From an uncultured Bacteroidota bacterium (GTDB taxonomy: Bacteria; Bacteroidota; Bacteroidia; 2-12-FULL-35-15): DNA of 64,000 nt. The notes below the pieces were generated by a model, which saw nothing but the letters and a program-made list of their open reading frames with translations, made no database searches and was not told the origin of the DNA. Made by a program: the position numbers and the translations under genes. Within the stretch, counting starts at the first letter, position 1; each line of letters begins with the position of its first letter. Positions 32,125 to 61,421 of the stretch are shown here, piece by piece. Location: contig CAIXIP010000008.1 in assembly GCA_903919535.1 (NCBI GenBank), positions 952-64,951 on the forward strand. Direction: 5' to 3'.

Positions 32125-33393
32125 ATGAAAAAAATTTACACAATGATTGCAGCATTGGCAGTGATAGTTTCTGCTACTGCTCAAAACAAACAACTAAATG
32201 ATGCGCCTAAAAAATTAGTACCAAATCCAAAATTACAAGCAGTTACTGATTTAAGTAATTTTAAAGCTAGTACTTCTCAAGATAGAGTATTTTCTGGTTG
32301 GTTAAATTATGCTTTGCAATTAGATGATGCAACTAATGGTTTTTCTCCAGGACTTGCTTCTGCTAGTTTTATGCTTGTGTTTCCTGATACAAATATTATC
32401 TTAGGACAATACACTGATGGATCAACAGCATATCCTCAGTTCCACAAAACAGGAACATGGTTAGACCCTAAAAATATGCCATTCCAAGGTATTAATGCAA
32501 CTGATGCTTATTCATTAGATTCAGTAGGTATCGTTTACGGATATTTAAGAAGTTTAACTTCAACTGTTGTTGATACTTTAAGAATTGATATCGTTAAACA
32601 CAGTGTTGCTCTAGAGTGGACTATGTCAGGTGGTAATTTAGAAACATACCAAGATATTGAGTATGTTCAGGCTACTGATAAAATTGCAGCATCTAATGTT
32701 CTTGCTACTTACTATTATTATTTAACACAAGCTGATTCTTCTAGTACTGCAGCAGAGTTATATATTAAAACTACTTTACCTACACAAGCTGCAGGTAACA
32801 GAATTGGTGCTATTGTTACATTCAAACCAGGTTATTCTTATACAATAACTGATTCAATCAGCAATAAAAATGCATTCTACCTTCTTTCATATGAGCAAAA
32901 TGGTGCAAGCACAGATCCAACATATTATGGAGTTTCTGGAGATGGTACTTCTGATTTAAATTGCTCAATGAGTATACCATCTTCTGTTAGATATAATACT
33001 AATGCAAATGGATGGAATGGTTATTTTATTCCAACTTGGGCTTGGACAACTCCATTCGCATACGAACACCACATCATTGAATTTAAAATTTCAAACCCTC
33101 CAACTGGAATTAATGAATTAGCTTCAAAAGGAGTAAAAGTTGAACAAAATTATCCAAACCCTTGTAACAATTCTACTGCTATTAACTATGAATTAGCTAA
33201 TAATTCAAAAGTTTTATTGTCAGTTTTTGATGTTACTGGAAAAGTTGTTGCAACACAAAATGTTGGAGAACAAAATGCAGGTAAGCACGTAATTAACTTT
33301 AATGCATCAAACCTTTCAGCAGGTCTTTATACTTACTCATTAACTGTAGGTCAAAACACAACTTCAACTATGAAAATGGTTGTTATTAAATAA
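32125..33393 (+). CDS. Secreted protein with T9SS type-A C-terminal sorting domain; unknown family
   Basis: Signal peptide. C-terminal ~80 aa NYPNPCNNSTAINYEL...GLYTYSLTVGQNTTSTMKMVVIK is a T9SS CTD. Confidence 0.7.
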   Translation: MKKIYTMIAALAVIVSATAQNKQLNDAPKKLVPNPKLQAVTDLSNFKASTSQDRVFSGWLNYALQLDDATNGFSPGLASASFMLVFPDTNIILGQYTDGSTAYPQFHKTGTWLDPKNMPFQGINATDAYSLDSVGIVYGYLRSLTSTVVDTLRIDIVKHSVALEWTMSGGNLETYQDIEYVQATDKIAASNVLATYYYYLTQADSSSTAAELYIKTTLPTQAAGNRIGAIVTFKPGYSYTITDSISNKNAFYLLSYEQNGASTDPTYYGVSGDGTSDLNCSMSIPSSVRYNTNANGWNGYFIPTWAWTTPFAYEHHIIEFKISNPPTGINELASKGVKVEQNYPNPCNNSTAINYELANNSKVLLSVFDVTGKVVATQNVGEQNAGKHVINFNASNLSAGLYTYSLTVGQNTTSTMKMVVIK

Positions 33394-33537: not shown

Positions 33538-34878
33538 ATGAAAAAAATAGTACTTTTTTTAGGAATGAGCAGCATTCTGTTTTGTGCACAGGCCCAACAA
33601 ACACCGGTGTCTGTTAACAATCAAAAAACTACAACTGCAAAACACATGTTATTTGATAAACAAAAGTTTATTGCAAATAAAGGTTTGGCAAATGCTTCAA
33701 GAGCAACAACAGAATCTTTTTGGTTGAACTATGGCGTTAGTCAAGATCAGTTATTAGGTGGTGGTGCAGGTTCTACAGGGCCATCTAAATTGAATTCAAA
33801 TTATCTTTTTCCTGATTCTACTGCTTTTGGCGAATTTGGTGCAGGTAATTTTTCTTCTATTTGGGTTCATCATCTTGGTGATATGCTGGATGTAAAATCA
33901 TCAGTGTTCAATAGTATTGATGGTGTTACCTGGACAGCAGCAACTGCTTATAGCGTTGATTCTATGTCTATCGTTTATGGATACAGCAGAAATGACGCAA
34001 ATACAGCTGTGGTTGATACCCTTGTTGTAACAATGTTTACAAATGCTACATCAACTAATAATCCTAATTCTGGTTTTATTGGAACTACTGCAGCAAATTA
34101 TGCTACTGATACATTGTCATTCAAAAAACTTAAATATCTGCAAGCATCAAATACAGTGGATGCAGTAGGGAAATACACATTTAAAATTCCATTGACGATT
34201 GCGGATACAGCTAATACTTATTACAATGAAAAAGCATTTAAAGTGCCAGTTCCATTTAATGTTCCTGCCGGAAAATTATTATCAACTGATATTCAGTTTA
34301 TCCCAGGATATACTTATGCATTAGGTGATCATATTGATTATGTTCACAATGCATTTTTCTTTACTTCTTATGAAGAAAATGGAAACGCTGGTGGTGCAGG
34401 AACATTCCCAATGTATTATGATTGTAATTATCAATCAGCAGCATGTGATTATAATCTTTCACACATTCTTCCTCAAGATGTTAGATATAATCAAGCTGGA
34501 ACATGGAATGGTTATTTCATCCCAACTTATGCTTATGGTATTACTTATGGTTTTGAGCATCACTTGATCTCTTACAAAGTTGTAAACCCTCCAACTGCAA
34601 TTACTGAGTTGAACAACAATTTTTCTTTAGATCAAAATCAACCAAATCCTTTTAAAGGAGCGACAACAATTAATTACCAATTGAAAAAATATGCTGGTAA
34701 TGTTTCTTTACAAATTTATGATGTAAGAGGAGTAAAACTATATGAAACATCAACATCAAATGTAAAAGCAGGAAATTATTCTGTGGATGTGAAGAATGTT
34801 AGTTTCGCACCAGGATTGTATTTTTATTCACTTGAAGTAGATGGAGCAAGAGTTGCTAAGAAAATGATCGTTGAATAA
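33538..34878 (+). CDS. Paralogous secreted protein with T9SS C-terminal sorting domain
   Basis: Shares WNGYFIPT(W/Y)A, GIVYGY, HH(I/L)I..K..NPPT(G/A)I.EL and the CTD with the upstream gene. Confidence 0.7.
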   Translation: MKKIVLFLGMSSILFCAQAQQTPVSVNNQKTTTAKHMLFDKQKFIANKGLANASRATTESFWLNYGVSQDQLLGGGAGSTGPSKLNSNYLFPDSTAFGEFGAGNFSSIWVHHLGDMLDVKSSVFNSIDGVTWTAATAYSVDSMSIVYGYSRNDANTAVVDTLVVTMFTNATSTNNPNSGFIGTTAANYATDTLSFKKLKYLQASNTVDAVGKYTFKIPLTIADTANTYYNEKAFKVPVPFNVPAGKLLSTDIQFIPGYTYALGDHIDYVHNAFFFTSYEENGNAGGAGTFPMYYDCNYQSAACDYNLSHILPQDVRYNQAGTWNGYFIPTYAYGITYGFEHHLISYKVVNPPTAITELNNNFSLDQNQPNPFKGATTINYQLKKYAGNVSLQIYDVRGVKLYETSTSNVKAGNYSVDVKNVSFAPGLYFYSLEVDGARVAKKMIVE

Positions 34879-47622: not shown

Positions 47623-47729
47623 AATTCCTGAGTAAATTTAAGTAATTAATCAAGTTTTAATAATATTCCAATAGTTTTGTTACCAATTTGTGTTCTACTA
47701 ATTGAATACATATCCGGAATATAAAATTT

Positions 47730-48284
47730 GTGAGTAGCACACCTGAAGAAACATATAAGTTAAAAGGATTGAATCGTAATGAATTTATTACGGTGATATA
47801 CAATAGATATGGCAAGAAATTGTATTCATATGCAATTCGTACCTGGAATGTAAATGAAGATGTTGCTTGGGATCTGATCTATAAAACGCTTTATAAAGTA
47901 ATTGACAGTTATACAAAATATCAGTTTCAATCGGAAGAAAAATTTGCATCGTTCATTTTCAAGATTTTTATTAATTATTTACGAAATCACTACAGGGATA
48001 ATAAAACAGATAAAGTATTTGAGTTTAGTGCACTGGATGATGTGGACTTAAGTACTAAAGAAAGTAAAGAAGAAGAACTTAATTCCAATAAAAAATTAAT
48101 TGCTTTAAATGAAGTTTTGGATAAAATGGAAGATTGGGAACGAATGCTTTTGCTGATGAGAAGTGAAGGAAGAGCCTATTCGGATATCGCCCAATATATT
48201 GATAAACCCGAAAATCAGCTGAAAGTATATTATCAACGCTTGAAAGAACAAATTACAAAAAAATTAAATGATCGATCAGAATAA
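47730..48284 (+). CDS. ECF-like RNA polymerase sigma factor
   Basis: Region 2 (AWDLIYKTLYKV...FIFKIFINYLRNHYRD) and region 4 (ERMLLLMRSEGRAYSDIAQYIDKPENQLKVYYQRLKEQ). Its stop overlaps the start of the next gene. Confidence 0.7.
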   Translation: MSSTPEETYKLKGLNRNEFITVIYNRYGKKLYSYAIRTWNVNEDVAWDLIYKTLYKVIDSYTKYQFQSEEKFASFIFKIFINYLRNHYRDNKTDKVFEFSALDDVDLSTKESKEEELNSNKKLIALNEVLDKMEDWERMLLLMRSEGRAYSDIAQYIDKPENQLKVYYQRLKEQITKKLNDRSE

Positions 48285-50715
48285 TAATATAAACGATAAA
48301 CACATCCGCGACTTGCTCAAATGGCGCCTATTAGAGCAAGCTGAGGATGATGATGTACTAACCCAAAAACTTGTTGATATGGAAGCAAAACTTGCATTTA
48401 GTGAAGAGGCGCTATATGTGCCGTCATTACAAAAAGAAAAAGAACTCTTAGAAAAATTAGCAAAAATTAAACCCAATAGTATATTCCTTAAATGGCTATT
48501 GCCGGCTGTATTGGCTGTATTTATAATAGCTGCATTATTAATATATAATAATTTATCACAAAGATCATTAAATGCATCTGCAAATAGAATAGAGGGTCAG
48601 AATAAAAATAATGACTTGCCCTTTGTTGCATTATCAGATTCTTCAAAACAAAAAGAAAATACGATTATTGTAAAAGACTCTCTTGAAAAAATTACCCAAT
48701 CCGATACAACAACAACTGAAAGAAACGAAAAGTGGATGGTAGGTGATCCGGGAATAAAAGTGGACTATAAAACCGCTTCGCCAAAAAAGGATTCAAAATT
48801 TGTGGATTATGATAACATACCCGTTTTAACAGAAAAGCAAAAGGTGGAGAATGAAAAGCAAAAGGAAAAGATGTTAAAGCAACTGATGAAATGTGACAAT
48901 AACTATTGGGCCATTATCCCAACGAGTAAAGAAATATTTCCTGCTTCTTCCATTCCCAATACATTTTTAATGTCAACTACAGAAGTTACAAATGCCCAAT
49001 ATCGAGTTTTTTTGTATGATTTGCTTATTCATGATAAAATTGAAGAATACATAAAAGCTGTTCCGGATAGCACAAAATGGAGAGACAAGAATTCTTATAA
49101 TGAACCTTATGTTAGATATTATTTCACTCATCCTGCATATAATGATTACCCAGTATTAAATATCTCACGAGAAGGAGCTGAAATGTATTGTAATTGGCTT
49201 ACCAACTTGATCCATCAAAAGAGCAACAACGAGAAAGAAAAACAAGCACATCGTCAATATGATAATGAAGTGCGCTTGCCAACTGATGAAGAGTGGACGA
49301 TAGCTGCACGTGGAGGGGATGAGAATGCAATTTATCCCTGGGGAACAAATAGTGTGCAAAATGAATATGGATGTTATTTATGCAATATGCCAAGAAGAGA
49401 TGATATAAAACCCGAAGAGAAATGTATGGCAGTATATGCGGATGTCACAACTCCCGTTCATGCTTATAATCCCAATAAATATGGTTTGTATAATTTGAGT
49501 GGTAACGTTGCTGAAATGGTTGTAAAAAAGGACTCGCATATTCCGATAACCAAAGGTGGTGGCTGGAGAAGTGATCCTGAGCACGTAAAAATTAACAGTG
49601 AAGAAAATGAAGGAGTCGTCACCGCCTCTCCATTTATAGGCTTCAGACCGATTCTTACCATTTCAGAAGAAAGTAAAAAGCATCGAAAATTTATGTTGGA
49701 TCATCACATCCCGATTTTGAGTGATAATCAGATGGATGAAAATGATATTCAAAAAGCAAAAATGATTAAATCATTAATCAAATTAAATAAAATTGATTGG
49801 GCATACATACCGATGAGTACTGACAAAATATATGGGGAAGTGGTTTCTGTGCAAGGGTTTTATATGGCGACAACAGAGGTAACGAACAATAATTACCGTA
49901 TATTTTTATACGATCTTTTAATTCATGATAAGCTTGATGATTATTTGAAAGCGTTGCCTGATACTGCAAAATGGGATATCAATAAATTTAAGACAAAGGG
50001 ATATAATCCTGTGCCTAATAAAACGAACAAAGCAAACTCCGACACAACTAAAAAAACTGTTTTCTTTGAACCAATGATAAATATGTATTTCTGGCATCCT
50101 GCCTATAATGATTATCCAGTTGTTAATGTTTCTAGAGAAGGAGCAAAGATGTATTGCGATTGGTTAACAAATGTCTTTAATGAAAAAATTAAATCAGATA
50201 ATCCGAAAGAAAAATGGGAATCACTTTTTATGAATGATTTGCGTTTGCCCGCAGAAGAAGAATGGATGATTGCAGCCCGAGGAGGTAAAGTTGAAGCGGA
50301 ATATCCTTGGGAAATAAATAGTGTGCAAAATGCGAAAGGATGTTTCCTTTGTAATTTCGGAATTATCAAAGCAACCGATAAAATTGATACAACTGCAATT
50401 TGTGATAACGCTTTAAAGCAGCCTAGTTTTGCAAAATCTCCAGCTCGAGTTGGTTCTATGGTTTTTGATGGTGCTTTCACCACGGCAAAAGTTGGGACGT
50501 ACAATCCGAATGATTTTGGTTTGTATAACATGAGTGGGAATGTAGCCGAAATGGTTTTAAAATTCAAAAGTAAAATACCTGCAACAAAAGGTGGCAGTTG
50601 GTATAGTGATGCTGATCACATTAAAATAAGCGCAGAAGATGAATACGAAGTAGTCATCGGAGCCTCTCCGTTTATCGGATTTCGACCAGTGTTTACTGCA
50701 AAGCAAAGCAAATAA
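48268..50715 (+). CDS. Membrane-anchored anti-sigma-like protein with two tandem FGE-sulfatase (SUMF1/GldJ-like) domains
   Basis: ~70-aa cytoplasmic N-terminus, one TM (LPAVLAVFIIAALLIY), then two ~250-aa repeats. Each repeat contains TTEVTN.QYR.FLYDL, HPAYNDYPV.N.SREGA.MYC.WLTN, (V/L)RLP..EEW.IAARGG, GLYN(L/M)SGNVAEMV and TKGG.W, the hallmarks of formylglycine-generating-enzyme-like domains. Confidence 0.7.
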   Translation: MIDQNNNINDKHIRDLLKWRLLEQAEDDDVLTQKLVDMEAKLAFSEEALYVPSLQKEKELLEKLAKIKPNSIFLKWLLPAVLAVFIIAALLIYNNLSQRSLNASANRIEGQNKNNDLPFVALSDSSKQKENTIIVKDSLEKITQSDTTTTERNEKWMVGDPGIKVDYKTASPKKDSKFVDYDNIPVLTEKQKVENEKQKEKMLKQLMKCDNNYWAIIPTSKEIFPASSIPNTFLMSTTEVTNAQYRVFLYDLLIHDKIEEYIKAVPDSTKWRDKNSYNEPYVRYYFTHPAYNDYPVLNISREGAEMYCNWLTNLIHQKSNNEKEKQAHRQYDNEVRLPTDEEWTIAARGGDENAIYPWGTNSVQNEYGCYLCNMPRRDDIKPEEKCMAVYADVTTPVHAYNPNKYGLYNLSGNVAEMVVKKDSHIPITKGGGWRSDPEHVKINSEENEGVVTASPFIGFRPILTISEESKKHRKFMLDHHIPILSDNQMDENDIQKAKMIKSLIKLNKIDWAYIPMSTDKIYGEVVSVQGFYMATTEVTNNNYRIFLYDLLIHDKLDDYLKALPDTAKWDINKFKTKGYNPVPNKTNKANSDTTKKTVFFEPMINMYFWHPAYNDYPVVNVSREGAKMYCDWLTNVFNEKIKSDNPKEKWESLFMNDLRLPAEEEWMIAARGGKVEAEYPWEINSVQNAKGCFLCNFGIIKATDKIDTTAICDNALKQPSFAKSPARVGSMVFDGAFTTAKVGTYNPNDFGLYNMSGNVAEMVLKFKSKIPATKGGSWYSDADHIKISAEDEYEVVIGASPFIGFRPVFTAKQSK

Positions 50716-50721
50716 AATTTT

Positions 50722-50760
50722 AAACGTCCTTCAATTTGTTTGAAGGACGTTTCATTTTGC
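50722..50760 (+). terminator. Hairpin terminator after the FGE-domain gene
   Basis: aaacgtccttcaa-tttgtt-tgaaggacgttt followed by cattttg. Confidence 0.5.
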
Positions 50761-50858
50761 TTCAGATTTATAATTATCATCCTTTCATGATTTAGTAAAA
50801 TAAATTTTATTGCTAGAGAATAATTACTCATCTTTCGAAGCCTAAAAAGTTAAACTGT

Positions 50859-51545
50859 ATGAATATTTTAAAAACATTAATTATTTGTCTGCAAGTGTTT
50901 ATTTTCATTAAAAGCATTGAAGCACAGAGTAAAGAAAAGCCTTTTAAATGTGGATATTGGTACAAAGACGAGAAACAATTAAATCCTATATACTACAATT
51001 ATTTCAGTTTTTTTGGTTGTAAGAAAGGTGAAGAAATTGCTAGTGTTGGTGCAGGAGGAGGGGTTATGGAAGCTTCAATAGCTTCGTATGTTGATGGTAT
51101 TTCATGGACACTTCAAGATATTGATACTGTTTGTTTGAATACCAGAGAGTTTAGAAAAATACTTGCTTATACAGTAACTTTAAAGAATAAACCAATAAAA
51201 GATTCCTTTACCATTGTAATTGGAAATGAAAAAAGCACCAATTTGATAAATAATAATTATGATAGAATATTACTCATAAACACTTATCACGAACTACCCC
51301 ATAAGGTAGATATTTTAAAAGATATTTATGCGAAATTAAAAATAAATGGATGTTTAGTTGTTTCTGATAGATTTGCCGAAAAGAAGGGTGTAGTAAGAAA
51401 AGATTGCGGTCACGAGGAACCAACAGAACTAGAATTATTAAGTACTTTAGAAACAGCGGGTTTTATTCTGATCTCAAAAAAGGATATTCCTAAAAAACGA
51501 CATTATTCTCACGAATGCACTATTTATACTTTTGCAAAGAAATAA
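50859..51545 (+). CDS. Signal-peptide protein with a class I SAM-methyltransferase-like core
   Basis: N-terminal cleavable signal (..IEAQ). SVGAGGG (motif I-like), acidic TLQDID, ILLINTYHEL (motif-IV-like). Confidence 0.35.
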   Translation: MNILKTLIICLQVFIFIKSIEAQSKEKPFKCGYWYKDEKQLNPIYYNYFSFFGCKKGEEIASVGAGGGVMEASIASYVDGISWTLQDIDTVCLNTREFRKILAYTVTLKNKPIKDSFTIVIGNEKSTNLINNNYDRILLINTYHELPHKVDILKDIYAKLKINGCLVVSDRFAEKKGVVRKDCGHEEPTELELLSTLETAGFILISKKDIPKKRHYSHECTIYTFAKK

Positions 51546-51560
51546 ATATTTTATTTGTTT

Positions 51561-52910
51561 TTAAATCAACCCTCTTGCTTTTAATTCCAGGTATTTATTA
51601 ATGGTTTTTACCGAAAGGTTTTGAGGTGAAGTTAAAATGCTGTGAATGCCATATTTTTCAAGCTCTTTTACAATTAATTTTTTTTCGTAAACAAATTTTT
51701 CGGCAATAATTTTATTGTAAACTTCTTCTGTTGTTGTTGCCGGTTTATCCAGGTAAGCTTTTAGCTCAGTGTTTTCAAAAAATATAACAACTAATAAATG
51801 GTCTTTTGCCAATCTTCGCAGATATTTTAATTGTCGCTGCAAGCCCGATAAGCTCTCGAAGTTAGTATAGATCAATAATAAACTTCGTTGATTAATTTTT
51901 GTTTTAACATTGATATACAAATTTTCGAAATCGCTTTCCAAGTAACCTGTTTTTTGTTTGTATAACAGAGTTAATATTTTTTGAAGATGTGCATTTTTTC
52001 TTTCCGCAGGTAAAATGGATTGAACTTTATTAGAGAATGTAATAATGCCTGCTTTATCTTGCTTCAACATTGCGATATTTGAAATCACTAAACTGGAGTT
52101 GATCGCATAATCCAATAAACTCAGTCCTTCAAATGGCATTTTCATTACTCTTCCCATGTCAATAACAGAATACACTTGTTGTGATTTTTCATCCTGATAT
52201 TGATTGATCATCAATTTGTTTTTACGTGCGGTTGCTTTCCAATTGATGGTGCGATAATCATCACCACCAACATATTCTTTTATCTGTTCAAATTCTGCGT
52301 TGTTTCCTCTTCTTCTAACCTTCTTTATTCCTACTTCAGTTAATTGATTAGTGATAGCAAGTAATTCATATTTTCGCATTTGCAAAAATGAAGGGTATAC
52401 AGGAACCATCATGTCTTGTGAAAAACGATATCGTTTTTGAATAAAACCTATTGGGCTTTTCACAAAAATGTTCAATGCACCAAAACTATATTCTCCACGT
52501 TTAACCGGGTGAACAATGTAGTTGATTGTTTTGCTTTTTCCTGAGTCAATATTTACTTTGAAGTTGGAATCACGCGCTTGAAACTGAAAAGGAAGTTCAT
52601 CAATGATATTTAATCTGGCAGGAAATAGGTATTTGTTTTCTAAAATAATCTGAATAAAATTATCATCACCATTTGATAATTTGTCTAAAGCATTTCGTCT
52701 TCCAAATATTCCATTTTTGTTGGCATATAAAATTAGTATATCAGTTATTAATAATGCAGCAATAATATATATACTATAAACTGCTATTGGCTCAACAAGG
52801 GGGTAAAAGAAAGCCAAGGTCAACAATATCACTTCTGCCGCTGTAATGTAATATAGCAGATTGGTAAAATATATTGATTTAATAAACGCTTTCATTTTTT
52901 CTAAATACAA
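51561..52910 (-). CDS. DUF58-domain protein (vWA-like partner of MoxR) with two N-terminal TM segments
   Basis: RRRGNNAEFEQIKEYVGGDDYRTINWKATARKNKLMINQYQDE is the DUF58 signature. Confidence 0.8.
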   Translation of the reverse strand: MYLEKMKAFIKSIYFTNLLYYITAAEVILLTLAFFYPLVEPIAVYSIYIIAALLITDILILYANKNGIFGRRNALDKLSNGDDNFIQIILENKYLFPARLNIIDELPFQFQARDSNFKVNIDSGKSKTINYIVHPVKRGEYSFGALNIFVKSPIGFIQKRYRFSQDMMVPVYPSFLQMRKYELLAITNQLTEVGIKKVRRRGNNAEFEQIKEYVGGDDYRTINWKATARKNKLMINQYQDEKSQQVYSVIDMGRVMKMPFEGLSLLDYAINSSLVISNIAMLKQDKAGIITFSNKVQSILPAERKNAHLQKILTLLYKQKTGYLESDFENLYINVKTKINQRSLLLIYTNFESLSGLQRQLKYLRRLAKDHLLVVIFFENTELKAYLDKPATTTEEVYNKIIAEKFVYEKKLIVKELEKYGIHSILTSPQNLSVKTINKYLELKARGLI

Positions 52911-52933
52911 ACTTTGAACTTGAAACTATTTCA

Positions 52934-53911
52934 CTAACGTGGGACTTCAATTTTTTCTATGATCTGTTTAATAATTTCATTAGTTGTAATGCCTTCCATT
53001 TCCTTTTCAGGAGTTAGCATTACACGATGTTTAAGAACAGGCGTAGCAACAAATTTAATGTCGTCAGGTGTTACAAAATCCCTTCCACTCATTGCTGCAA
53101 TAGCTTTTGAACTTGATAGTATTGCCAAAGATGCCCGTGGTGAAGCACCTAAGTATAAGGATGAATTATTTCTTGTTTGATTTACAATTTTTGCGATGTA
53201 TGAAATTAAGTTCGCATCTATATGTATCTGCCTTACTTTACTTCTGTATTCTTTCACTTCATCTGCATTTAAAACCCCATTTATTGAATTAATATCAATA
53301 ATGTTTTTTCGGGAATGAAAGTCAGCAATGATTTTTGTTTCATCCTCTAAGGAAGGGTAATCTACTTCGATCTTAAAAAGGAAACGGTCGAGTTGAGCTT
53401 CCGGTAAACGATAGGTGCCTTCATGCTCAATTGGATTTTGTGTTGCCAGAACAATAAAGGGAGCAGTCAACAAATATGTTTTTCCATCAACGGTAATTTG
53501 TCGTTCTTCCATTGCTTCAAACAGGGCCGATTGTGTTTTTGCCGGTGCTCGATTGATCTCATCAATCAAAATAATGTTTGAAAATAACGGTCCGGATTTA
53601 AATTCAAATTCCGAAGTCTTTAAATTATAAATACTTGTTCCTATAATATCTGAAGGCATTAGGTCGGGAGTAAACTGAATGCGAGAAAATCCCACCGACA
53701 TTGTTTTGGCAAGTAATTTTGCGGTAAGCGTTTTTGCTACCCCGGGAACACCTTCAATTAAAACATGCCCATCAGCCAGAACAGCAGCAATAAGCAGTTC
53801 AATCATATTGTCTTGGCCAACAATGATCTTGTTTACTTCATGTTTGATATTGCTTACAGCTTGCTGCAAGCCACTTAGGTCAACTCTGTTTTGAAAAACT
53901 TGTTCTTCCAT
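52934..53911 (-). CDS. MoxR-family AAA+ ATPase
   Basis: IVGQD...GHVLIEGVPGVAKT (Walker A), ILIDEINRA (Walker B). 325 aa. Confidence 0.9.
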   Translation of the reverse strand: MEEQVFQNRVDLSGLQQAVSNIKHEVNKIIVGQDNMIELLIAAVLADGHVLIEGVPGVAKTLTAKLLAKTMSVGFSRIQFTPDLMPSDIIGTSIYNLKTSEFEFKSGPLFSNIILIDEINRAPAKTQSALFEAMEERQITVDGKTYLLTAPFIVLATQNPIEHEGTYRLPEAQLDRFLFKIEVDYPSLEDETKIIADFHSRKNIIDINSINGVLNADEVKEYRSKVRQIHIDANLISYIAKIVNQTRNNSSLYLGASPRASLAILSSSKAIAAMSGRDFVTPDDIKFVATPVLKHRVMLTPEKEMEGITTNEIIKQIIEKIEVPR

Positions 53912-53970
53912 ATGTTTGTTTTATTAGTTCGTTAGTATGGTTAATTTACATCAACGTGTTAGCAATAAAA

Positions 53971-55206
53971 TTATCTTTTATTTTCTTTATGAAATTCTTC
54001 AATTAATCGATTTAGCTTTAATAATTCTTGTTGTGAAATAGTTTGTTTGATACTTAGATCGGAAAAATAATAAAATATATCATGTACTTTTTGATACTCA
54101 ATTCCCGATAAATTTGAGATGCGTTCAATGAAAAGGTCGTCATAAATTGTTGTTTTTACTTGAAAAGTAGAACGGATAAATTCCAAGAAATATGTGATTT
54201 TTTTATCAGCAACATTTTTATGGTTTCCTGCCTGGTAGTATAATGTGCCTACTATATCAACGAATTGCAAGGTTGTGTTGCGGTAGGGTTCAATGATTGG
54301 GATTATGCGTTGTTTGCGCTTTATTCCAAAAAGCATAAAAATAATTAGTGATAGCAGTGATAAATAATATGCGTTTCGTAATAATGGATTGTTAAAAATA
54401 ACTCGTAACGGGCTATCAGTTTTGTCATTTCCTGCTTTGTAATATTCGTCCCAAATAATTGATTGGTTGGGTAAGCAGGAAAGCGAATTTAGAACATACG
54501 ACATGTTTTTGCTTACAAAATGATAGTTACTGAAAGCTTCAGGATTTGTATTTATAAAAATTTTCCCCTTACCCATTTTTATAGAAATAAAATTAATTTC
54601 TTTATTATTGGTTAAGCCAAGAACCTTGCTTCTCAGTGTGTCGAAGGATTTTAAATAAGTGCCTTCAAACCCTTTTACATATGAATAATTAGAAATATTT
54701 TTAAGTGATGGATTTGAAAAATTGATTTTTATTGTATCATATTGCTTTGTTATTTTTTTAATAGCTGCTGAATCATTGTCAAAACTATTTCCAAGATCAA
54801 AATCATTGTCTGTTTTTAATTTCAATGAATCAGCGAACTTCCCATCGAACTGATTTGCTGCAACAAAAACTATATTCCCTTCAGCAGCAAATTTGAATAA
54901 TTCACGAGTGTCTAGAGTATCGGGTTTAAATACATTATTAATGATAATATAATTATGGTTTGTAATGCCATTTAGATTTAGAGTATTGTAAATTGGAAAT
55001 GTAGCATTACTAATTGTTTGAGAAGGAAAGAGTGTTGGCAATTCGCCATATAAAGCAGAAGTACCAAAAGGGATTTTATCTTTTTTGATATACGAAAGAT
55101 GCCAGTTGATTGGCTTCGGACTTAGCCATTGCAAAACCATTAGCAAGCTAAAACAAATTACTAAAATGGAAATATATTTTCTGTTCCCTTTTAACATTTT
55201 AATCAA
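53971..55206 (-). CDS. DUF4350-like membrane protein (N- and C-proximal TM flanking an extracytoplasmic domain)
   Basis: 411 aa. TM near the N-terminus and at ~290. Part of a MoxR/DUF58 cluster. Confidence 0.45.
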   Translation of the reverse strand: MIKMLKGNRKYISILVICFSLLMVLQWLSPKPINWHLSYIKKDKIPFGTSALYGELPTLFPSQTISNATFPIYNTLNLNGITNHNYIIINNVFKPDTLDTRELFKFAAEGNIVFVAANQFDGKFADSLKLKTDNDFDLGNSFDNDSAAIKKITKQYDTIKINFSNPSLKNISNYSYVKGFEGTYLKSFDTLRSKVLGLTNNKEINFISIKMGKGKIFINTNPEAFSNYHFVSKNMSYVLNSLSCLPNQSIIWDEYYKAGNDKTDSPLRVIFNNPLLRNAYYLSLLSLIIFMLFGIKRKQRIIPIIEPYRNTTLQFVDIVGTLYYQAGNHKNVADKKITYFLEFIRSTFQVKTTIYDDLFIERISNLSGIEYQKVHDIFYYFSDLSIKQTISQQELLKLNRLIEEFHKENKR

Positions 55207-55238
55207 TGTTCATTTTAATGAATGAACTATTATCTTCA

Positions 55239-56009
55239 TTAATTGTTGACTTTAAAATCTTTAAATTTTGATATTGTACTGATAAAACTGTTTTCATCTA
55301 ACTGGAAATCACCATACCAAATATATTCGTATAAAACGGCCAACTCTTTAAACTGCTCACTGTACTTGCTGTTTGAAAGTTCTATCGAATAATCATTGTT
55401 TGTTTTGTCAATTTGCCAGGTAATCAAATTCCTATCACTTAATTCCTTAAGGAGTTTCAAAAAATGCAAACGTACAGCTCTTCTAAAATCTTTCTTAGAT
55501 AGCGCTTCATCAATTAATTCATTGAAATTTATTTTATGAATATCTTCTTCAAATTCTTTAAAATCTATCGGAACGGAAGCACTTTTTCCATAAAATAAAG
55601 CTCGAATATTATTTTTTAATAGCAGGATTATGATTAAAGTTATTGCTGCGATTATTAGCAAATATTCAAATATTTTTAACCCCAATGCACCACCTTTACT
55701 ATCAAAAAGCTCGAAAACTTTACGCCAAAACCATTCTTTGATTCGCTCCCAAAGTGTTTTAGGTGCAGGGCCAACACGGTCATATTTGTAATCTGAGTTG
55801 CTACGTAAAGTGTTTTGTTGTTCACTAGTAAGTGAACGGATTTCAAATTTGGTAGAATCGTATGAGATTTTAATTTTAGACTTTATTGAATCATTTGCAC
55901 AATACACATCAGTACTATATAGTAAACTAGATAGGAGTGTAGTTAAGACAAAAATTAAAAGCTTAATACTGCTGCTCAACATTGCTTTGCGTTGTATTTC
56001 CAATTTCAT
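55239..56009 (-). CDS. DUF4129-domain protein
   Basis: C-terminal W..DKTNNDY...EYIWYGDF pattern. One central TM. Confidence 0.5.
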   Translation of the reverse strand: MKLEIQRKAMLSSSIKLLIFVLTTLLSSLLYSTDVYCANDSIKSKIKISYDSTKFEIRSLTSEQQNTLRSNSDYKYDRVGPAPKTLWERIKEWFWRKVFELFDSKGGALGLKIFEYLLIIAAITLIIILLLKNNIRALFYGKSASVPIDFKEFEEDIHKINFNELIDEALSKKDFRRAVRLHFLKLLKELSDRNLITWQIDKTNNDYSIELSNSKYSEQFKELAVLYEYIWYGDFQLDENSFISTISKFKDFKVNN

Positions 56010-56919
56010 TGATGCGTTCCATTAATCCTACACCATCTTTTGCTTCAGCCAAACTGTAATAATGAAATGCGTTAATAACATATAATACAGAGTATAATAT
56101 GGTGCTACAAAAAGTGCATATGGTGGCAATAATTAAAAAAGCAACAGGAGTTTCTCCGCCACCGTTTTTCATATGACTGATAAGCAATACCATTTGGTAT
56201 ACAACTTGTGGCAACGTAAATACAAAACCAACAATTCCAATTGCAATAGCCGCACAAACTACAATTACCCATGTCCACCAGAAATTCCCTCGCATCACTT
56301 CTCTTGTTCTTCCAAACGACTCAAAGACACCTCTGTCCTCTTGCATTTTGACTAAATAAACAACAGATAATTGCCACATGAGTGGTGGAAATAAAATGAG
56401 CATCCCAAAAATAAAAGCGAGAGCAAATAAAATTCCTAAAAAAGGAACAGCAGTTGTTAGGCCAATAATTATACCTGCAATTACAGCGAAAATAACAATT
56501 GCTAAAAGTGTAAGAACAATAAATACAATAAGTAAGTTGGTAATATTTTGTATAAGTTTATTTGCAACATCATTTACAGTAAATCCGTTTGGACCTTTTT
56601 CCATGTAATTGATCATAAAAGAATAAGTTGTTCCAATTAAAACAATTCCACTTACGAGTGCTGATAACAAAAAAATCAGGAATGACCAACCATATTGTGC
56701 TAAAGGGTTTCCGCTTGTAAAACGGCTAAGGGTAGAAATTTCAATTGCACTGGATTGATAGAATGCTCCGGCAATAGCACTTACAAGAACGAATGGTCCT
56801 GCAATAAAAATGAGTGATTGAAAAAACAATTTAAAGTTTTGCCTTAAAAATTTTACTGTCACATTAAATGTTTCACCAAAATCGCGTACTTGTCTGAAAT
56901 TAATTTTTTCTTGATTCAT
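55963..56919 (-). CDS. Polytopic membrane protein, unknown function
   Basis: 318 aa with ~6 TM segments. In the same co-directional, overlapping gene string. Confidence 0.45.
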   Translation of the reverse strand: MNQEKINFRQVRDFGETFNVTVKFLRQNFKLFFQSLIFIAGPFVLVSAIAGAFYQSSAIEISTLSRFTSGNPLAQYGWSFLIFLLSALVSGIVLIGTTYSFMINYMEKGPNGFTVNDVANKLIQNITNLLIVFIVLTLLAIVIFAVIAGIIIGLTTAVPFLGILFALAFIFGMLILFPPLMWQLSVVYLVKMQEDRGVFESFGRTREVMRGNFWWTWVIVVCAAIAIGIVGFVFTLPQVVYQMVLLISHMKNGGGETPVAFLIIATICTFCSTILYSVLYVINAFHYYSLAEAKDGVGLMERINEIGNTTQSNVEQQY

Positions 56920-56939
56920 AATTTTTTATTGAATTACTA

Positions 56940-57977
56940 TTAAAGATTATTGGAAATATTTAGTTCACCATTTGTATACCGTTTTGCTTTTTTGTTCAGT
57001 TGTATCGGATAAATAATAAAATACCAAATAATGAAAGATAACGAACTGAAAATAATTGTAAGACTCAACCAAATTGGCATTTGTGTATAGCGTGTTACAA
57101 AACTTTCAAAAAAACCTGCTGTAATAAATATTGGAATCAAACCGATAACAATTTTAACTCCTTGTTTAGCTCCCCGTACAAAAGATGCTGCGCGCGAATA
57201 TGTTCCGGGAAATAATATACTGTTTCCCATCGTTAATCCCGCACATCCTGCAATGATGATAGCTGATATTTCTAAAGTGCCATGAATCCAAATTGCCAAA
57301 ACCGATTGAAGTAATAATCCCTTTGCGTAAAAGAAATATTGAAAAGCACCAAGCATTACACCGTTAGAAAATAACATGTACCCTGTGCCGAACGAAAAAA
57401 AGATACCTAATACAAAACAAATTAATGCAACACGAATATTATTAATGGTGATACCAAAAAACATATCCACCTGATTCATGCTTTTGTAAACAGCCATTGG
57501 GTCACCTTTATTTATATTTTCAATGGTCATATTTACATAGCTGTCTCCTAAAATTAAACGAACAAATGTGTCATCCTTTGCTGCTGATACTATTCCAATT
57601 AACATCGCTATTGCGAAAATCAGAAAGGAATACATCAATTGTTTTTGTGAGTTTTTGAAAATAAATGGTAATTCATACTTCCAAAAAGTGATGATGCGTT
57701 TGCTTTTTTCTTTTTTTCTTTTGTAAATTTCCTGATGAACTCTGGCTGCAAGTGAATTGAGATATTGTGTGGTTTTCGCTTTCGGATAATTTGTTCGTGC
57801 ATAGGATAAATCATCTGTTAGCTGAATAAATAGATCAGCCATCAAATCTGGATCCGAAGCGCCTTTTGTTGTAATTAGCGAATCAAATTGTTGCCATTTA
57901 TCGGCATTTTGTTTTAAAAAGGTGATTTCTTTCACAGGCTGGTTCATTAATAATTGAACCATTGTAAATTTATACAA
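56940..57977 (-). CDS. SpoIIM-like (DUF95) membrane protein
   Basis: 345 aa. TM topology and HGTLEISAIIIAG-type motif typical of stage-II-sporulation-M-like proteins. Confidence 0.55.
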   Translation of the reverse strand: MYKFTMVQLLMNQPVKEITFLKQNADKWQQFDSLITTKGASDPDLMADLFIQLTDDLSYARTNYPKAKTTQYLNSLAARVHQEIYKRKKEKSKRIITFWKYELPFIFKNSQKQLMYSFLIFAIAMLIGIVSAAKDDTFVRLILGDSYVNMTIENINKGDPMAVYKSMNQVDMFFGITINNIRVALICFVLGIFFSFGTGYMLFSNGVMLGAFQYFFYAKGLLLQSVLAIWIHGTLEISAIIIAGCAGLTMGNSILFPGTYSRAASFVRGAKQGVKIVIGLIPIFITAGFFESFVTRYTQMPIWLSLTIIFSSLSFIIWYFIIYPIQLNKKAKRYTNGELNISNNL

Positions 57978-58072
57978 AATATTGAATTGAAAATTGTTTA
58001 GATGAAATTGCTGGAAATACTTATTTTTATAAAAATTAATAGATCAAGAAATAATATTTTGACCATTCCTAT

Positions 58073-58789
58073 ATGGAAAATATAAAAATACAAACCACAC
58101 AAAATGTAGATATTGAATATGAGTTGGCTAGTATTGGCGATCGTATTTTGGCTACTTTGTTAGATTATTTGTTTTTTATAGCTTATTTTTTTGTGATACT
58201 TTTAATTGCAGCACTTACTAACGATGCAGTCTTTGAAAGTATTGCAGTCATTTCACTTTTGTCACTGCCAATATTATTGTATGATTTACTTTGCGAAACT
58301 TTTTTTCAGGGTAAATCATTTGGAAAAATGATCATGAAAATTAAAGTAGTAAAATTAGATGGTACTCAAGCTAATTTTGGAGCTTATCTATTGCGATGGT
58401 TATTACGTGTTGTTGATACTCGAATATTTGGTGGCGCTATTGCCCTTATTGCTGTTTTGGTAAACGGTAAAGGTCAGCGCATCGGAGATATGGCTGCAGG
58501 AACAACGGTAATAAAAATGAAGGCCCAAATAACAATTAGCGATACTATTTTAAATAAAGTAAAACCTAATTATACGCTGGTTTTTCCAGAAGTGGCAAAG
58601 CTGAGTGATAATGATATTGCGATTATTAAAGATGTAATGCGAATAAGTATTCAAAGTGAAAATATGGAAGCAATTAAAAAACTGGCTCTCAAAACTAAAG
58701 CTGCGATGGGTATTACTACCAATTTGCCTCACACACAATTTTTAGCAACCGTTGTGCAGGACTATAGCCATTATAATTTTGATAAATAA
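58073..58789 (+). CDS. RDD-family membrane protein
   Basis: RILATLLDYL... and ...RVVDTR...GQRIGDMAAGTTV: the R, D, D residues and TM pattern of RDD domains. Confidence 0.7.
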   Translation: MENIKIQTTQNVDIEYELASIGDRILATLLDYLFFIAYFFVILLIAALTNDAVFESIAVISLLSLPILLYDLLCETFFQGKSFGKMIMKIKVVKLDGTQANFGAYLLRWLLRVVDTRIFGGAIALIAVLVNGKGQRIGDMAAGTTVIKMKAQITISDTILNKVKPNYTLVFPEVAKLSDNDIAIIKDVMRISIQSENMEAIKKLALKTKAAMGITTNLPHTQFLATVVQDYSHYNFDK

Positions 58790-59126: not shown

Positions 59127-61421
59127 TTAATGCTGAATAACAATTCTTTTCGTTAAAGCACCCGATTTTACTTTGCCTTCGGTTGCCAGCTCAACAACTT
59201 TAAAAACATAAATTCCTTGACTTAAATTTTCTGTGGAGATACCTAGTGAGCTGTTAAATATTTTTTGTGAAGAAATGATTTGCCCCATCACATTATATAT
59301 TTCCACCTGGAATCTACTGGTTGTATTATTTAAAATGTGAATTGTTACACTGTTGTCTGCCGGATTTGGAAATACTTCTAAATTCCAATGTATTGTATTG
59401 TCGTTGTTTTCTATAGTTTCGCTTAAACTCGATACTCCTTTATAAAATGCAGCTCCGCCTTGATAATTTCCGATCATAAAATCTAAATAGCCATCATTGT
59501 TGATATCTGTAGCTGTTGGTGAAGTATGTGCGCCTTCATAGATATTTAAATACGTTGAGTCAACTAATGTAAATGCTCCCGAAATGTTTCCATCAATATT
59601 ATCGAATAATCGCAAATAGCCATTTTCTGCGCCAACCAATAATTTTGTGACTCCAGCTTGTTTAAATAAGCACGGATAACTATATCCAGTGACGTATCCA
59701 TATTGGATCACTTTTACGTTTCCCCAAAAGTGTGAAACGGAATCCAAAACAGGAATTGTAGCGGTGGCACTTCCTGTGTGATGGTAAAATGCCAATTTCC
59801 CGCTGCGTCCTCCAATTACAATATCGTTTTTACCATCGTTGTCAACATCTATAATTTGTGGTGCGGCAAAATCTCCAACATCAATTGCACGATTACTCGA
59901 ATTTTTTAATGTAATAGGTGTTGTAACAAAACTTGCTGGAGCACCTGATAGGGCAGTGTTTTCATAATAAAATAATTTTCCGTCAAACATCCCGATAATC
60001 ATATCTCCATCACCATCTCCATCCATATCACCGAAAGCCGGTGCTAAATTTAATTTTCCTAGTGTGCTTAAATTATTGTAATCACGTGTTACTAAATCGA
60101 ATTTTGGATTGCTTGCTGTTCCTGTATTTTTAAACTGTGCTATTTTGCTTTGATAATTTGGTGAACCGTAATAGCCATAATTTCCAATGAATAGATCTTT
60201 TAATCCATCATTATCATAATCGAAAAATACAGGATAAGCACCCTCGCCAACATCAATTATATTGTCTTGTAGAAAATTTGATTGTTGAAATTGAAATACA
60301 GGAAAGTTTGTTGTGCCAGTGTTTTTGTAAAAAATTACACTATTAAAATTTTCAGAGCCGCTGGAGTTTGGACTTACAATCAAATCTTTTTTGCCATCGT
60401 TATTTACATCTAGATAATATGCGCAAGGAAATTGCGTAAGGTTAACTGCACTCGTACTTGAATTATTTGCCGGGAAAAGCGTGTCAACTGATATCATATT
60501 AGCAGAAGTTGGACTTCCTCCATTCATTACAGAAGTTAGATTATTATATGAAATCCCCCCTACAACAATATCTTTTGCTCCATCTCCATTTAGATCCATA
60601 CAAATTTCGCAGGAGCCTGAATGTCTGTCTGCTGAACGTTGGTCGCTATTAATTTCTATAATGCCTGGATTTGCAACATTACCAAAGCAAGTGTCATGTA
60701 ATGTGAATTTATTGTTTAGTGGGCTTTCGGCTGCATAACCCCAGCATCGGTTTTTCATCTGAAATTTTAAACTATCACAAGTGCCATATAATTCCATGCT
60801 CTGGTTTTGATGGTATTCCATAAATGTTCCTGTAATGGCAAATGTTACAACATCTAAATCGCCATCATTATCAATATCTGCAATTGATGGAATATCTACC
60901 GAACTGATGTATAAATTTATTAATCCACCTGCCGGAGGATTATAAATAGAGTATGTAAGCTGCTTTACTAAAGTAAATTGCAATCCTGTAGCTATGCTCG
61001 ATGTGTTTTTGTAAACATTGAATCCTCCACCGTAATCAGAATAGCTGAAAATGTCTTCTTTTCCATCACAATTATAATCACGAAGCAATGCCCAGTCATG
61101 TAGCTTTGGGAATTTGCTTTCGTATTTAGGGTCGTATTTGTAATCAACGGCATTTGCTGTGCCCGCATTTATATAAGTGCGTATCTTATTTCCCGTCCGA
61201 TCAAAAATAAAGAGATCTTTTATCCCATCTAAATTCAGGTCAATTTCAGATATCTGAATAAAATTCAATCCTCCTGCCCAAGGATTAAGAATAGTATTAC
61301 CGTTAATCTTTACAGGGATGCTGTCATTTTGCAAAAAAAAAGGCTGAGCAGACGCAATGTTTGTAAGAAACAAACAAACTAATAGTGCAGTAAAAGGGAT
61401 CTTTGATTTCAACATGATCAT
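59127..61421 (-). CDS. FG-GAP/VCBS-repeat (integrin-alpha-like propeller) protein with T9SS C-terminal sorting domain
   Basis: Eight D.(N/D).DG..D(I/L/V) calcium-binding repeats (NCDGKEDIF, DIDNDGDLDVV, DYDNDGLKDLFIG...). Signal peptide. C-terminal T9SS CTD (EVFPNPADNSVTIHIL...GIYVFKV). Confidence 0.75.
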   Translation of the reverse strand: MIMLKSKIPFTALLVCLFLTNIASAQPFFLQNDSIPVKINGNTILNPWAGGLNFIQISEIDLNLDGIKDLFIFDRTGNKIRTYINAGTANAVDYKYDPKYESKFPKLHDWALLRDYNCDGKEDIFSYSDYGGGFNVYKNTSSIATGLQFTLVKQLTYSIYNPPAGGLINLYISSVDIPSIADIDNDGDLDVVTFAITGTFMEYHQNQSMELYGTCDSLKFQMKNRCWGYAAESPLNNKFTLHDTCFGNVANPGIIEINSDQRSADRHSGSCEICMDLNGDGAKDIVVGGISYNNLTSVMNGGSPTSANMISVDTLFPANNSSTSAVNLTQFPCAYYLDVNNDGKKDLIVSPNSSGSENFNSVIFYKNTGTTNFPVFQFQQSNFLQDNIIDVGEGAYPVFFDYDNDGLKDLFIGNYGYYGSPNYQSKIAQFKNTGTASNPKFDLVTRDYNNLSTLGKLNLAPAFGDMDGDGDGDMIIGMFDGKLFYYENTALSGAPASFVTTPITLKNSSNRAIDVGDFAAPQIIDVDNDGKNDIVIGGRSGKLAFYHHTGSATATIPVLDSVSHFWGNVKVIQYGYVTGYSYPCLFKQAGVTKLLVGAENGYLRLFDNIDGNISGAFTLVDSTYLNIYEGAHTSPTATDINNDGYLDFMIGNYQGGAAFYKGVSSLSETIENNDNTIHWNLEVFPNPADNSVTIHILNNTTSRFQVEIYNVMGQIISSQKIFNSSLGISTENLSQGIYVFKVVELATEGKVKSGALTKRIVIQH

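Follow-up and report, generated by a model that had tools for sequence, protein, structure and literature searches.

An ECF sigma factor gene overlapping the gene of a membrane protein with tandem GldK/PorK-like domains in an uncultured Bacteroidota bacterium

Pairs of extracytoplasmic function (ECF) sigma factors and anti-sigma factors are a major route of envelope signalling, in which the outer domain of the anti-sigma factor sets what is sensed. In sigmaE–RseA, SigW–RsiW and AlgU–MucA, a sigma factor reduced to its sigma2 and sigma4 domains is encoded with an overlapping, co-transcribed partner that consists of a short cytoplasmic helical domain, one transmembrane (TM) helix and a periplasmic sensor. 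The same organization is seen in a 64,000-nt stretch of DNA from an uncultured Bacteroidota bacterium (contig CAIXIP010000008.1 of assembly GCA_903919535.1, positions 952 to 64,951; hereafter the window), where the gene of an ECF sigma factor (47730-48284) overlaps that of an 815-residue membrane protein (48268-50715). The likeness is one of layout: the cytoplasmic module of the window protein has no detectable homology to the class I anti-sigma domains of these regulated intramembrane proteolysis (RIP) pairs and no zinc motif, and its sensor, unlike theirs, is a predicted pseudo-enzyme with the fold of the formylglycine-generating enzyme (FGE).

An enzyme-derived sensor has been described in the DdvS–DdvA pair of Myxococcus xanthus, where RseP-dependent RIP is blocked by a bulky periplasmic domain (PMC11506125). 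Like the window protein, DdvA has a cytoplasmic domain of ~70 residues, a long flexible linker and a large enzyme-derived periplasmic domain with an incomplete active site, but it differs in its TPR-CHAT (caspase-like) sensor and its zinc-type anti-sigma N-terminus (PMC11506125). The DdvS–DdvA regulon, a CBASS/CRISPR defence island, does not apply to the window pair (PMC11506125), and DdvA was ruled out as an FGE-type anti-sigma factor since its sensor is TPR-CHAT. A literature search, with the ECF Hub supplementary tables outside its scope, found no anti-sigma factor with an FGE, GldK, PorK or GldJ-like sensor, in agreement with an earlier sequence-only reading of the locus, which knew of no characterised anti-sigma factor that uses FGE domains in this way; nor does an FGE-linked group figure in the main text of the ECF re-classification paper. 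The pairing of an ECF sigma with a GldK-like anti-sigma factor is apparently undescribed and widespread in Bacteroidota. What would be new is the combination of an unrecognised, putatively sigma-binding module with a sensor of the type found in the track of the T9SS (type 9 secretion system) and gliding machinery, the logic of an ECF sigma held by a single-pass anti-sigma factor being known.

A non-catalytic use of the FGE fold is itself on record. PorKN structures published in 2025 revealed that PorK has repurposed the fold, without the catalytic cysteines, as a docking hub for PorN, and GldK and GldJ have the same repurposed fold (PMC12421860, PMC12365241). PorK Cys356, within the segment GCFLGNF, forms an essential disulfide with PorG, and GldK is joined to SprF and PorG by disulfide bonds through Cys343 (PMC12365241, PMC12635249).

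The sigma gene and its membrane-protein partner

The two genes probably constitute a sigma/transmembrane-regulator signalling module; our confidence in the sign of regulation and in the mechanism of release is lower than in the module itself. Both lie on the forward strand, the sigma gene running from a GTG start to a TAA stop (184 residues) and its partner starting with ATG. The overlap of the sigma stop with the next start, first noticed in the sequence-only reading, was reproduced by a check of the open reading frames (ORFs): the genes have 17 nt in common, in different frames, and are translationally coupled. Searched with the hidden Markov models that this reading had proposed, the sigma protein scores above the cutoff of TIGR02937 (sigma70-ECF; 55.7 bits against 42.9) but below those of Pfam Sigma70_r2 (23.8 against 24) and r4_2 (18.5), both weak matches. 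An AlphaFold2 (AF2) model built with 70 homologues consists of two helical domains, sigma2 (residues 16-100, nt 47775-48029) and sigma4 (residues 121-181, nt 48090-48272), with an acidic disordered linker at residues 94-119 and neither sigma1.1 nor sigma3, and the PDB entries that match it best are ECF sigmas without exception (SigH of M. tuberculosis, sigmaE of E. coli, AlgU, SigW and CnrH). This is a bona fide two-domain ECF (group IV) sigma of the sigma-70 family, and every one of its 605 homologues at E<=1e-10 is generically named.

The association of the two genes was surveyed in 80 metagenomic loci, with a family alignment, and in loci from genome and assembly look-ups, each FGE-type ORF being scored for its N-terminal topology and for the identity of the adjacent upstream ORF. 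All 79 FGE proteins with a first TM segment at residues 40-80 are immediately preceded, on their own strand, by a sigma homologue, and 78 of the 79 pairs overlap, by 1-47 nt (mode 8 nt; overlaps of 8, 14 or 11 nt are the commonest). A sigma gene precedes none of the 18 FGE ORFs, complete or 5'-truncated, that lack TM-anchored topology; paralogues that have a signal peptide, or lack a TM segment, stand without an upstream sigma in L010, L011, L018-L020, L081, L089 and L090, and in L010 the ORF upstream encodes an unrelated membrane protein. The conservation of gene neighbourhood that the sequence-only reading had wanted checked is thus found for TM-anchored relatives and not for signal-peptide paralogues. 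In its overlap with the gene of a TM protein, and in a pairing kept in all 79 relatives, the window sigma has the co-transcribed partner gene typical of ECF sigmas. Paired proteins carry one FGE domain in 51 cases, two in 25 and three in one, and the division of their N-termini into two sequence families follows that of the sigmas into two clades and of the upstream motifs into two types.

The family comprises hundreds of clusters at 90% identity, all from Bacteroidota. The sole exact match to the window protein in a collection of 5.8 billion proteins is P0121, a 317-residue fragment from an ENA metagenome contig of 1333 nt, and identity to the best full-length relatives does not exceed ~50%, which leaves the two-repeat version all but unsampled; with residues 1-183 as query, a word-index homology search returned four matches only.

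The 815-residue protein is a type-II membrane protein, with its N-terminus in the cytoplasm, one TM helix and its C-terminus in the periplasm. The first 70 residues (48268..48477, forward strand), the putative sigma-binding (anti-sigma) domain, are hydrophilic with a net charge of -4, and in the AF2 model (82 sequences; mean predicted local distance difference test, or pLDDT, 71.9) they form helices at 10-23, 30-44, 47-50 and 54-66. They are followed by the only strong hydrophobic segment of the protein, whose top Kyte-Doolittle window (2.54, residues ~72-93) coincides with the single TM helix (48478..48546, residues ~71-93; AF2 helix 72-105, pLDDT 70-90); the first TM segment of relatives is placed at residues 46-73. 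The short cytoplasmic N-terminus and single TM segment that had been read from the sequence stand on these features. A signal peptide, the reading of the N-terminus that would have undone this topology, was ruled out, since hydrophobicity begins only at ~72 and residues 1-70 are the best conserved of the protein; neither a signal peptide nor a lipobox-type lipoprotein signal was found at the N-terminus. Beyond the membrane runs a poorly conserved, low-complexity periplasmic linker (48547..48816, residues 94-183; pLDDT ~30 over residues 104-179), which by analogy is a candidate site-1 cleavage region. The sequence-only reading had taken the whole periplasmic part for an internal duplication; the two FGE repeats are there, but this linker of ~90 residues precedes the first.

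Measured against five orthologues, identity is 71-86% for the sigma factor and 65-78% for the cytoplasmic tail, falling to 46-57% in the FGE repeats, 39-52% in the TM helix and 25-37% in the linker; by this comparison the tail is the most constrained part of the 815-residue protein and tracks the sigma factor. When residues 1-72 were compared exhaustively by phmmer with 1.84 billion representatives, 30 proteins were retrieved, 28 of which have the module at the extreme N-terminus. Among these module carriers are proteins with no FGE domain, eight with DUF4097 (Toastrack) and one with OmpA, whose modules are homologous to that of the window protein at E 1e-4 to 1e-10 and which are likewise encoded behind overlapping sigma genes. 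Identity to the window sigma is 65% and 59% for the sigmas of the DUF4097 and OmpA loci, against 42% for those of the other FGE-bearing clade, and TGTTACC-N5-GTGTTCT lies upstream of the DUF4097 and OmpA sigmas. Such sister modules are alike in sigma clade, cytoplasmic module, gene overlap and upstream motif, and differ from the window unit in the periplasmic input domain; on this evidence the FGE domain is one among several swappable sensors on a common chassis of sigma and N-terminus. A sigma, module and putative promoter that stay constant while the periplasmic domains are swapped are what characterizes a transmembrane regulator that binds a sigma.

Other features of these relatives were seen in passing. 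In both DUF4097 loci examined (L095, 4875-6537; L096, 2495-4157) the module is followed on the same strand by genes for a 303-residue LytTR-domain protein and a DUF2306 protein, which may be a conserved downstream partner or target of the DUF4097 variant. P0115, a 539-residue protein from a Bacteroidota metagenome-assembled genome, has a CarboxypepD_reg-like domain (PF13715/PF13620) between its TM helix and its FGE domain, an architecture that is a further sign of periplasmic modularity.

Taken by its context, the N-terminal module is very probably an anti-sigma domain; by homology it is not recognizable as one, NCBIfam giving no match on the N-terminus of the protein, and the combination of a helical cytoplasmic domain with a single TM helix resembles class I anti-sigma proteins in architecture only. 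Anti-sigma function of the 815-residue protein as a whole appears well supported by the same context. The pairing, the conserved module and the swapping of that module between sensors demonstrate coupling without indicating its sign, and would also be seen if the membrane protein were a FecR-like regulator needed for the activity of the sigma (a pro-sigma/activator arrangement), with a reversed or dual sign. Indeed, N-terminal fragments of FecR-type regulators of Proteobacteria and Bacteroidota activate their sigma factors. Most characterised single-pass partners of ECF sigmas are nevertheless inhibitory, the 815-residue protein has no similarity to FecR (PF04773) or a related family, and no TonB-dependent transducer is adjacent in the window or in the surveyed loci, which makes a FecR-like activator unlikely.

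The periplasmic FGE-fold repeats

The 815-residue protein matches PF03781 (FGE-sulfatase) with E=5.5e-61 over two stretches, and its halves are 47% identical to each other (BLASTP E=2e-99), which bears out both the domain family and the internal duplication put forward by the sequence-only reading. The three hallmarks it listed each occur twice: RLPTDEEWTIAARGG (residues 336-350) and RLPAEEEWMIAARGG (residues 659-673), GLYNLSGNVAEM (residues 406-417) and GLYNMSGNVAEM (residues 751-762), and TKGGGW and TKGGSW. Repeat 1 (48817..49701, residues 184-478; PF03781) and repeat 2 (49702..50712, residues 479-815), both on the forward strand, each comprise a leading helix (residues 189-207 and 486-504, respectively) and a GldK/PorK-like pseudo-FGE domain. 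Repeat 2 is modelled with pLDDT >90 over most of its domain, and Foldseek gives a probability of 1.0 to FGE structures.

True FGEs (SUMF1; PDB 1Y1E, 6S07, 2Q17) have PF03781, the overall fold and the RLPTEAEW, GNVxEW and GGS[WY] motifs in common with the window protein. They differ at the active site. The human segment GGSYMCHRSYC, confirmed in PDB sequences, contains Cys336 and Cys341, which are catalytic and copper-binding; its counterparts are GGGWRSDPEHV in repeat 1 and GGSWYSDADHI in repeat 2, with Ser435 and Val440, and Ser780 and Ile785, at the catalytic positions. The C-x4-C pair is found in 0 of 89 family domains. To the question raised in the sequence-only reading, whether either repeat retains the catalytic pair, the answer is that both cysteines are absent from both repeats, and the FGE domains are, as judged from these residues, pseudo-enzymes. 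The public annotations ('formylglycine-generating enzyme required for sulfatase activity', 'SUMF1/EgtB/PvdO family nonheme iron enzyme') are probably wrong. These names and the strong PF03781 match would suit an active, membrane-anchored formylglycine-generating or related oxidase (SUMF1/EgtB/PvdO), but the catalytic cysteines are missing in each repeat and in every one of the 89 family domains examined, the DinB-type iron-binding domain that EgtB has is not present, NCBIfam scores are far from those required for PvdO (34 bits against 500) or SenA (30 against 420), and the domains are nearer to non-enzymatic PorK than to any enzyme, all of which makes such an activity highly improbable.

The affinity to PorK and GldK emerges from sequence and structure searches alike. 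The best NCBIfam match of the 815-residue protein is TIGR03525 (302.7 bits over two domains, under the equivalog cutoff of 350), and it stays short of the cutoffs of the GldJ models TIGR03524 (121.9 bits against 458.2) and TIGR03530 (144 against 382.9). A search of PDB sequences retrieved P. gingivalis PorK with E 3-4e-29 and true FGEs with 1e-10 or weaker, repeat 1 aligning to PorK residues 245-399 (E~1e-25), and the top four Foldseek matches are PorK, with up to 30% identity, compared with 18-20% in the structural alignment to FGEs. The closest relatives of the FGE domains are, on these scores, the T9SS/gliding track proteins PorK/GldK (TIGR03525; PDB 9MZU, 9OTS, 9MYJ, 9P6H), which have a non-catalytic FGE fold as predicted for the window protein. 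PorK and the window protein have in common the segment PDxxxW...YFxHPAYxDYPVVxIS, where true FGEs align poorly, and PorK/GldK and the family of the window protein are both periplasmic and both restricted to Bacteroidota.

The differences lie in anchoring, in one insertion and in gene context. PorK/GldK are lipid-anchored in the outer membrane, whereas the window protein is anchored in the inner membrane by a TM helix that follows a 70-residue tail. The PorK insertion that forms the interlocking wedge and outer rim (Arg104-Cys260) has ~130 residues (~115-244) without counterpart in the window protein: the alignment skips from PorK ~114 to ~245 while the query runs on contiguously at residues 260/256, the last ~15 residues of the insertion being matched. 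Finally, PorK/GldK are encoded in porKLMN/gldKLMN operons and the window protein behind a sigma gene, no gldL/M/N (porL/M/N) genes being adjacent, in the window or in the 80 related loci. With no lipoprotein signal, no wedge/rim insertion and no gldLMN neighbours, the window protein was rejected as a PorK/GldK orthologue.

What the domains have kept is the cysteine by which PorK and GldK hold their partners. Cys369, in GCYLCN of repeat 1 (nt 49369-49386, forward strand), aligns with PorK Cys356 (GCFLGN), and Cys692, in GCFLCN of repeat 2 (nt 50338-50355, forward strand), falls in the same column of the domain alignment. The equivalent cysteine is present in 55 of the 75 first or sole domains of the family and, among multi-domain proteins, in 22 of 25 first domains but only 1 of 25 second domains, the one being repeat 2 of the window protein. 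The clade of the window protein has a second cysteine three residues further on (Cys372 and Cys695), making a CxxC; this second cysteine occurs in 8 of 101 family domains, Ala being usual, and the CxxC may be a redox-active or intramolecular-disulfide variant.

Another feature of the repeats is a conserved amphipathic helix ahead of each FGE domain (48817-48891, residues 184-208; 49708-49782, residues 481-505), with the pattern IPxLTEKQ...K.KEKM.K.L.K, invariant P185, K199 and M202, and pLDDT >90. In the published PorKN structure PorK is bound by PorN helices, and it is conceivable, by analogy, that the helix is a cis-acting mimic of these.

The window genome has a T9SS, as three proteins with the Por_Secre_tail C-terminal sorting domain are encoded in the window (32125-33393, 33538-34878 and 59127-61421, one of them with FG-GAP repeats). 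A link of the sigma pair to T9SS/gliding is taken seriously mainly because the PorK-Cys356-equivalent cysteine is retained. It is an attractive hypothesis, not a result; two specific points in its favour are that GldK/PorK are the nearest relatives and that the equivalent of PorK Cys356/GldK Cys343 is conserved.

The same affinity and the same partner-attachment cysteine could be taken to mean that the 815-residue protein has no part in sigma regulation and is a co-transcribed, sigma-dependent envelope protein, for instance an inner-membrane GldK/PorK paralogue with a structural role in T9SS/gliding, all the more as target genes often lie within ECF sigma operons. This would leave unexplained why the cytoplasmic 70 residues are the most conserved, why the module co-varies with the sigma clade and why the same module and sigma occur with DUF4097 and OmpA; moreover, the unit contains no other candidate anti-sigma gene, and the lipoprotein anchor and ring-forming insertion of PorK are missing. 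A purely structural role is accordingly very unlikely.

As to the origin of the tandem, a neighbour-joining tree built from 101 FGE domains of the family puts both repeats inside the clade of single-domain orthologues, a placement from which a lineage-specific duplication follows. In it, repeat 2 clusters with the orthologues' sole FGE domain, to which it is 52-57% identical, while repeat 1 has repeat 2 as its nearest neighbour and is the faster-diverging copy. On this tree the duplication is independent of the two- and three-domain architectures of other clades, so that multiplication of the domain has been repeated in the family; the tandem is not, as far as these sequences go, a defining feature, most relatives being single-domain.

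Upstream motif, limits of the unit and neighbouring genes

A block of ~60 nt immediately before the sigma start (47670..47729, forward strand) has been kept by every close orthologous locus, including those with unrelated DNA farther upstream, and could be a promoter/leader; its promoter function and any -35/-10 assignment are uncertain. It contains the core motif TGTTACC-N5-GTGTT (47678-47694, forward strand), 52 nt ahead of the GTG start, the sole perfect match within the window. TGTTAC(C) occurs in 33 of 66 dereplicated sigma upstream regions, a ~15-fold enrichment. Two types of motif can be told apart: group 1, to which the window belongs, has TGTTACC-N5-GTGTT/TCGTT, and group 2 has ATGTAACTT-N10-CGTTACACTTAC (27 of 66 regions, e.g. 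L028 and L002). For the group-2 motif, -35/-10 elements can plausibly be assigned on the model of TGTAAC-N16/17 ECF promoters; the spacing of the group-1 motif is atypical. TGTAAC and GTTACA of the group-2 motif form an inverted repeat, at which a regulator might bind, whether in addition to a function as -35/-10 pair or in its place.

At the other end, 7 nt past the stop codon of the 815-residue protein, begins an intrinsic-terminator-like hairpin (50722..50762, forward strand; 13-bp stem with 5 G-C pairs, loop of 5, T-rich tail), the strongest of 5 terminator-like sites found against 1.9 expected. Its own conserved upstream motif and this hairpin make the pair a clean bicistronic operon. No third gene is recurrently linked to it among the 80 paired loci, where even the commonest neighbours are found in no more than 10 loci and the recurrent ones are housekeeping-like and for the most part encoded on the other strand. 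Among the closest orthologous loci, where the FGE protein has a single domain and ~500 residues, flanking genes match those of the window: L004 and L008 both share arsC, prfB, an ORF of 157-159 residues and recX with the window flanks, and L008 also has fumC.

Beyond the hairpin, which separates it from the pair, lies a gene (50859-51545) for a 228-residue protein with an N-terminal hydrophobic, signal-like segment and weak, sub-cutoff matches to methyltransferase families; it is not conserved in orthologous loci. It is followed on the minus strand by a cluster (51561-58789) of DUF58, MoxR-type AAA_3 ATPase, DUF4350, DUF4129, FtsX-like (weak) and SpoIIM-family genes, with a divergent RDD-family gene, which is not kept beside the sigma pair in other loci. 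Elsewhere in the window, a minus-strand ORF of 1107 residues (885-4208) matches no Pfam family at E<=0.001.

Proposed mode of action and significance of the module

A plausible scheme, modelled on described anti-sigma factors, is that the 70-residue cytoplasmic helical module would bind and sequester the sigma factor, while the GldK-like domains would act as periplasmic sensor of a ligand or partner, offering by analogy with PorK/GldK a docking surface for a protein, with Cys369/Cys692 possibly involved in docking the partner. Loss or gain of this interaction would open the disordered linker to site-1 cleavage followed by intramembrane proteolysis, as in RseA, RsiW and DdvA, or else a conformational change might release the sigma. 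Once freed, the sigma would transcribe its own operon from the putative TGTTACC-N5-GTGTT promoter, together with a regulon elsewhere in the genome.

Several points weigh against this interpretation. In the N-terminal module, residues 1-70 contain no cysteine and hence no HxxxCxxC zinc motif of the ZAS subclass, and 30 N-terminal modules from both clades match no Pfam anti-sigma family at E<=10, a threshold at which only scattered single, non-recurrent matches appeared. The positive-inside signal at the TM helix is weak (three Lys on its N-terminal side versus two Arg on its C-terminal side). The surveyed loci were picked for their similarity to the query, some of them are near-duplicates (66 distinct upstream regions), and there are few negative controls for pairing. 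The spacing of TGTTACC-N5-GTGTT does not fit a canonical -35/-10 pair, and no regulon member was found in the 64-kb window, where a scan with TGTTACCNNNNNGTGTT allowing <=2 mismatches gave other sites at chance frequency (7 versus 4.5 expected). Proteolytic release, for its part, is proposed purely by analogy.

A more specific version, which we regard as unlikely, is that the GldK/PorK-like domains are a decoy by which the anti-sigma factor reports the state of the T9SS/gliding track. Cys369/Cys692 would catch the cysteine-bearing C-terminal tails of PorG/SprF-type outer-membrane proteins, or the domains would dock unengaged GldN/PorN, and thiol-disulfide exchange or partner binding would control the release of the sigma. 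If true, this would be a Bacteroidota assembly checkpoint for secretion and gliding.

The analysis defines a large family that has so far probably been mis-annotated as FGE or SUMF1-EgtB-PvdO enzymes, and in which the membrane-proximal sensor domain keeps the PorK/GldK cysteine that was shown in 2025 to tether outer-membrane clients through disulfides. To our knowledge, little has been established about the regulation of T9SS/gliding outside Porphyromonas (PorXY-SigP), and the sigma/GldK-like module is a concrete, genetically testable candidate for such a role. Also defined are a new, putatively sigma-binding N-terminal module with swappable sensors (FGE-like, Toastrack and OmpA-like) and a candidate cognate promoter motif, which could serve in finding the regulon.

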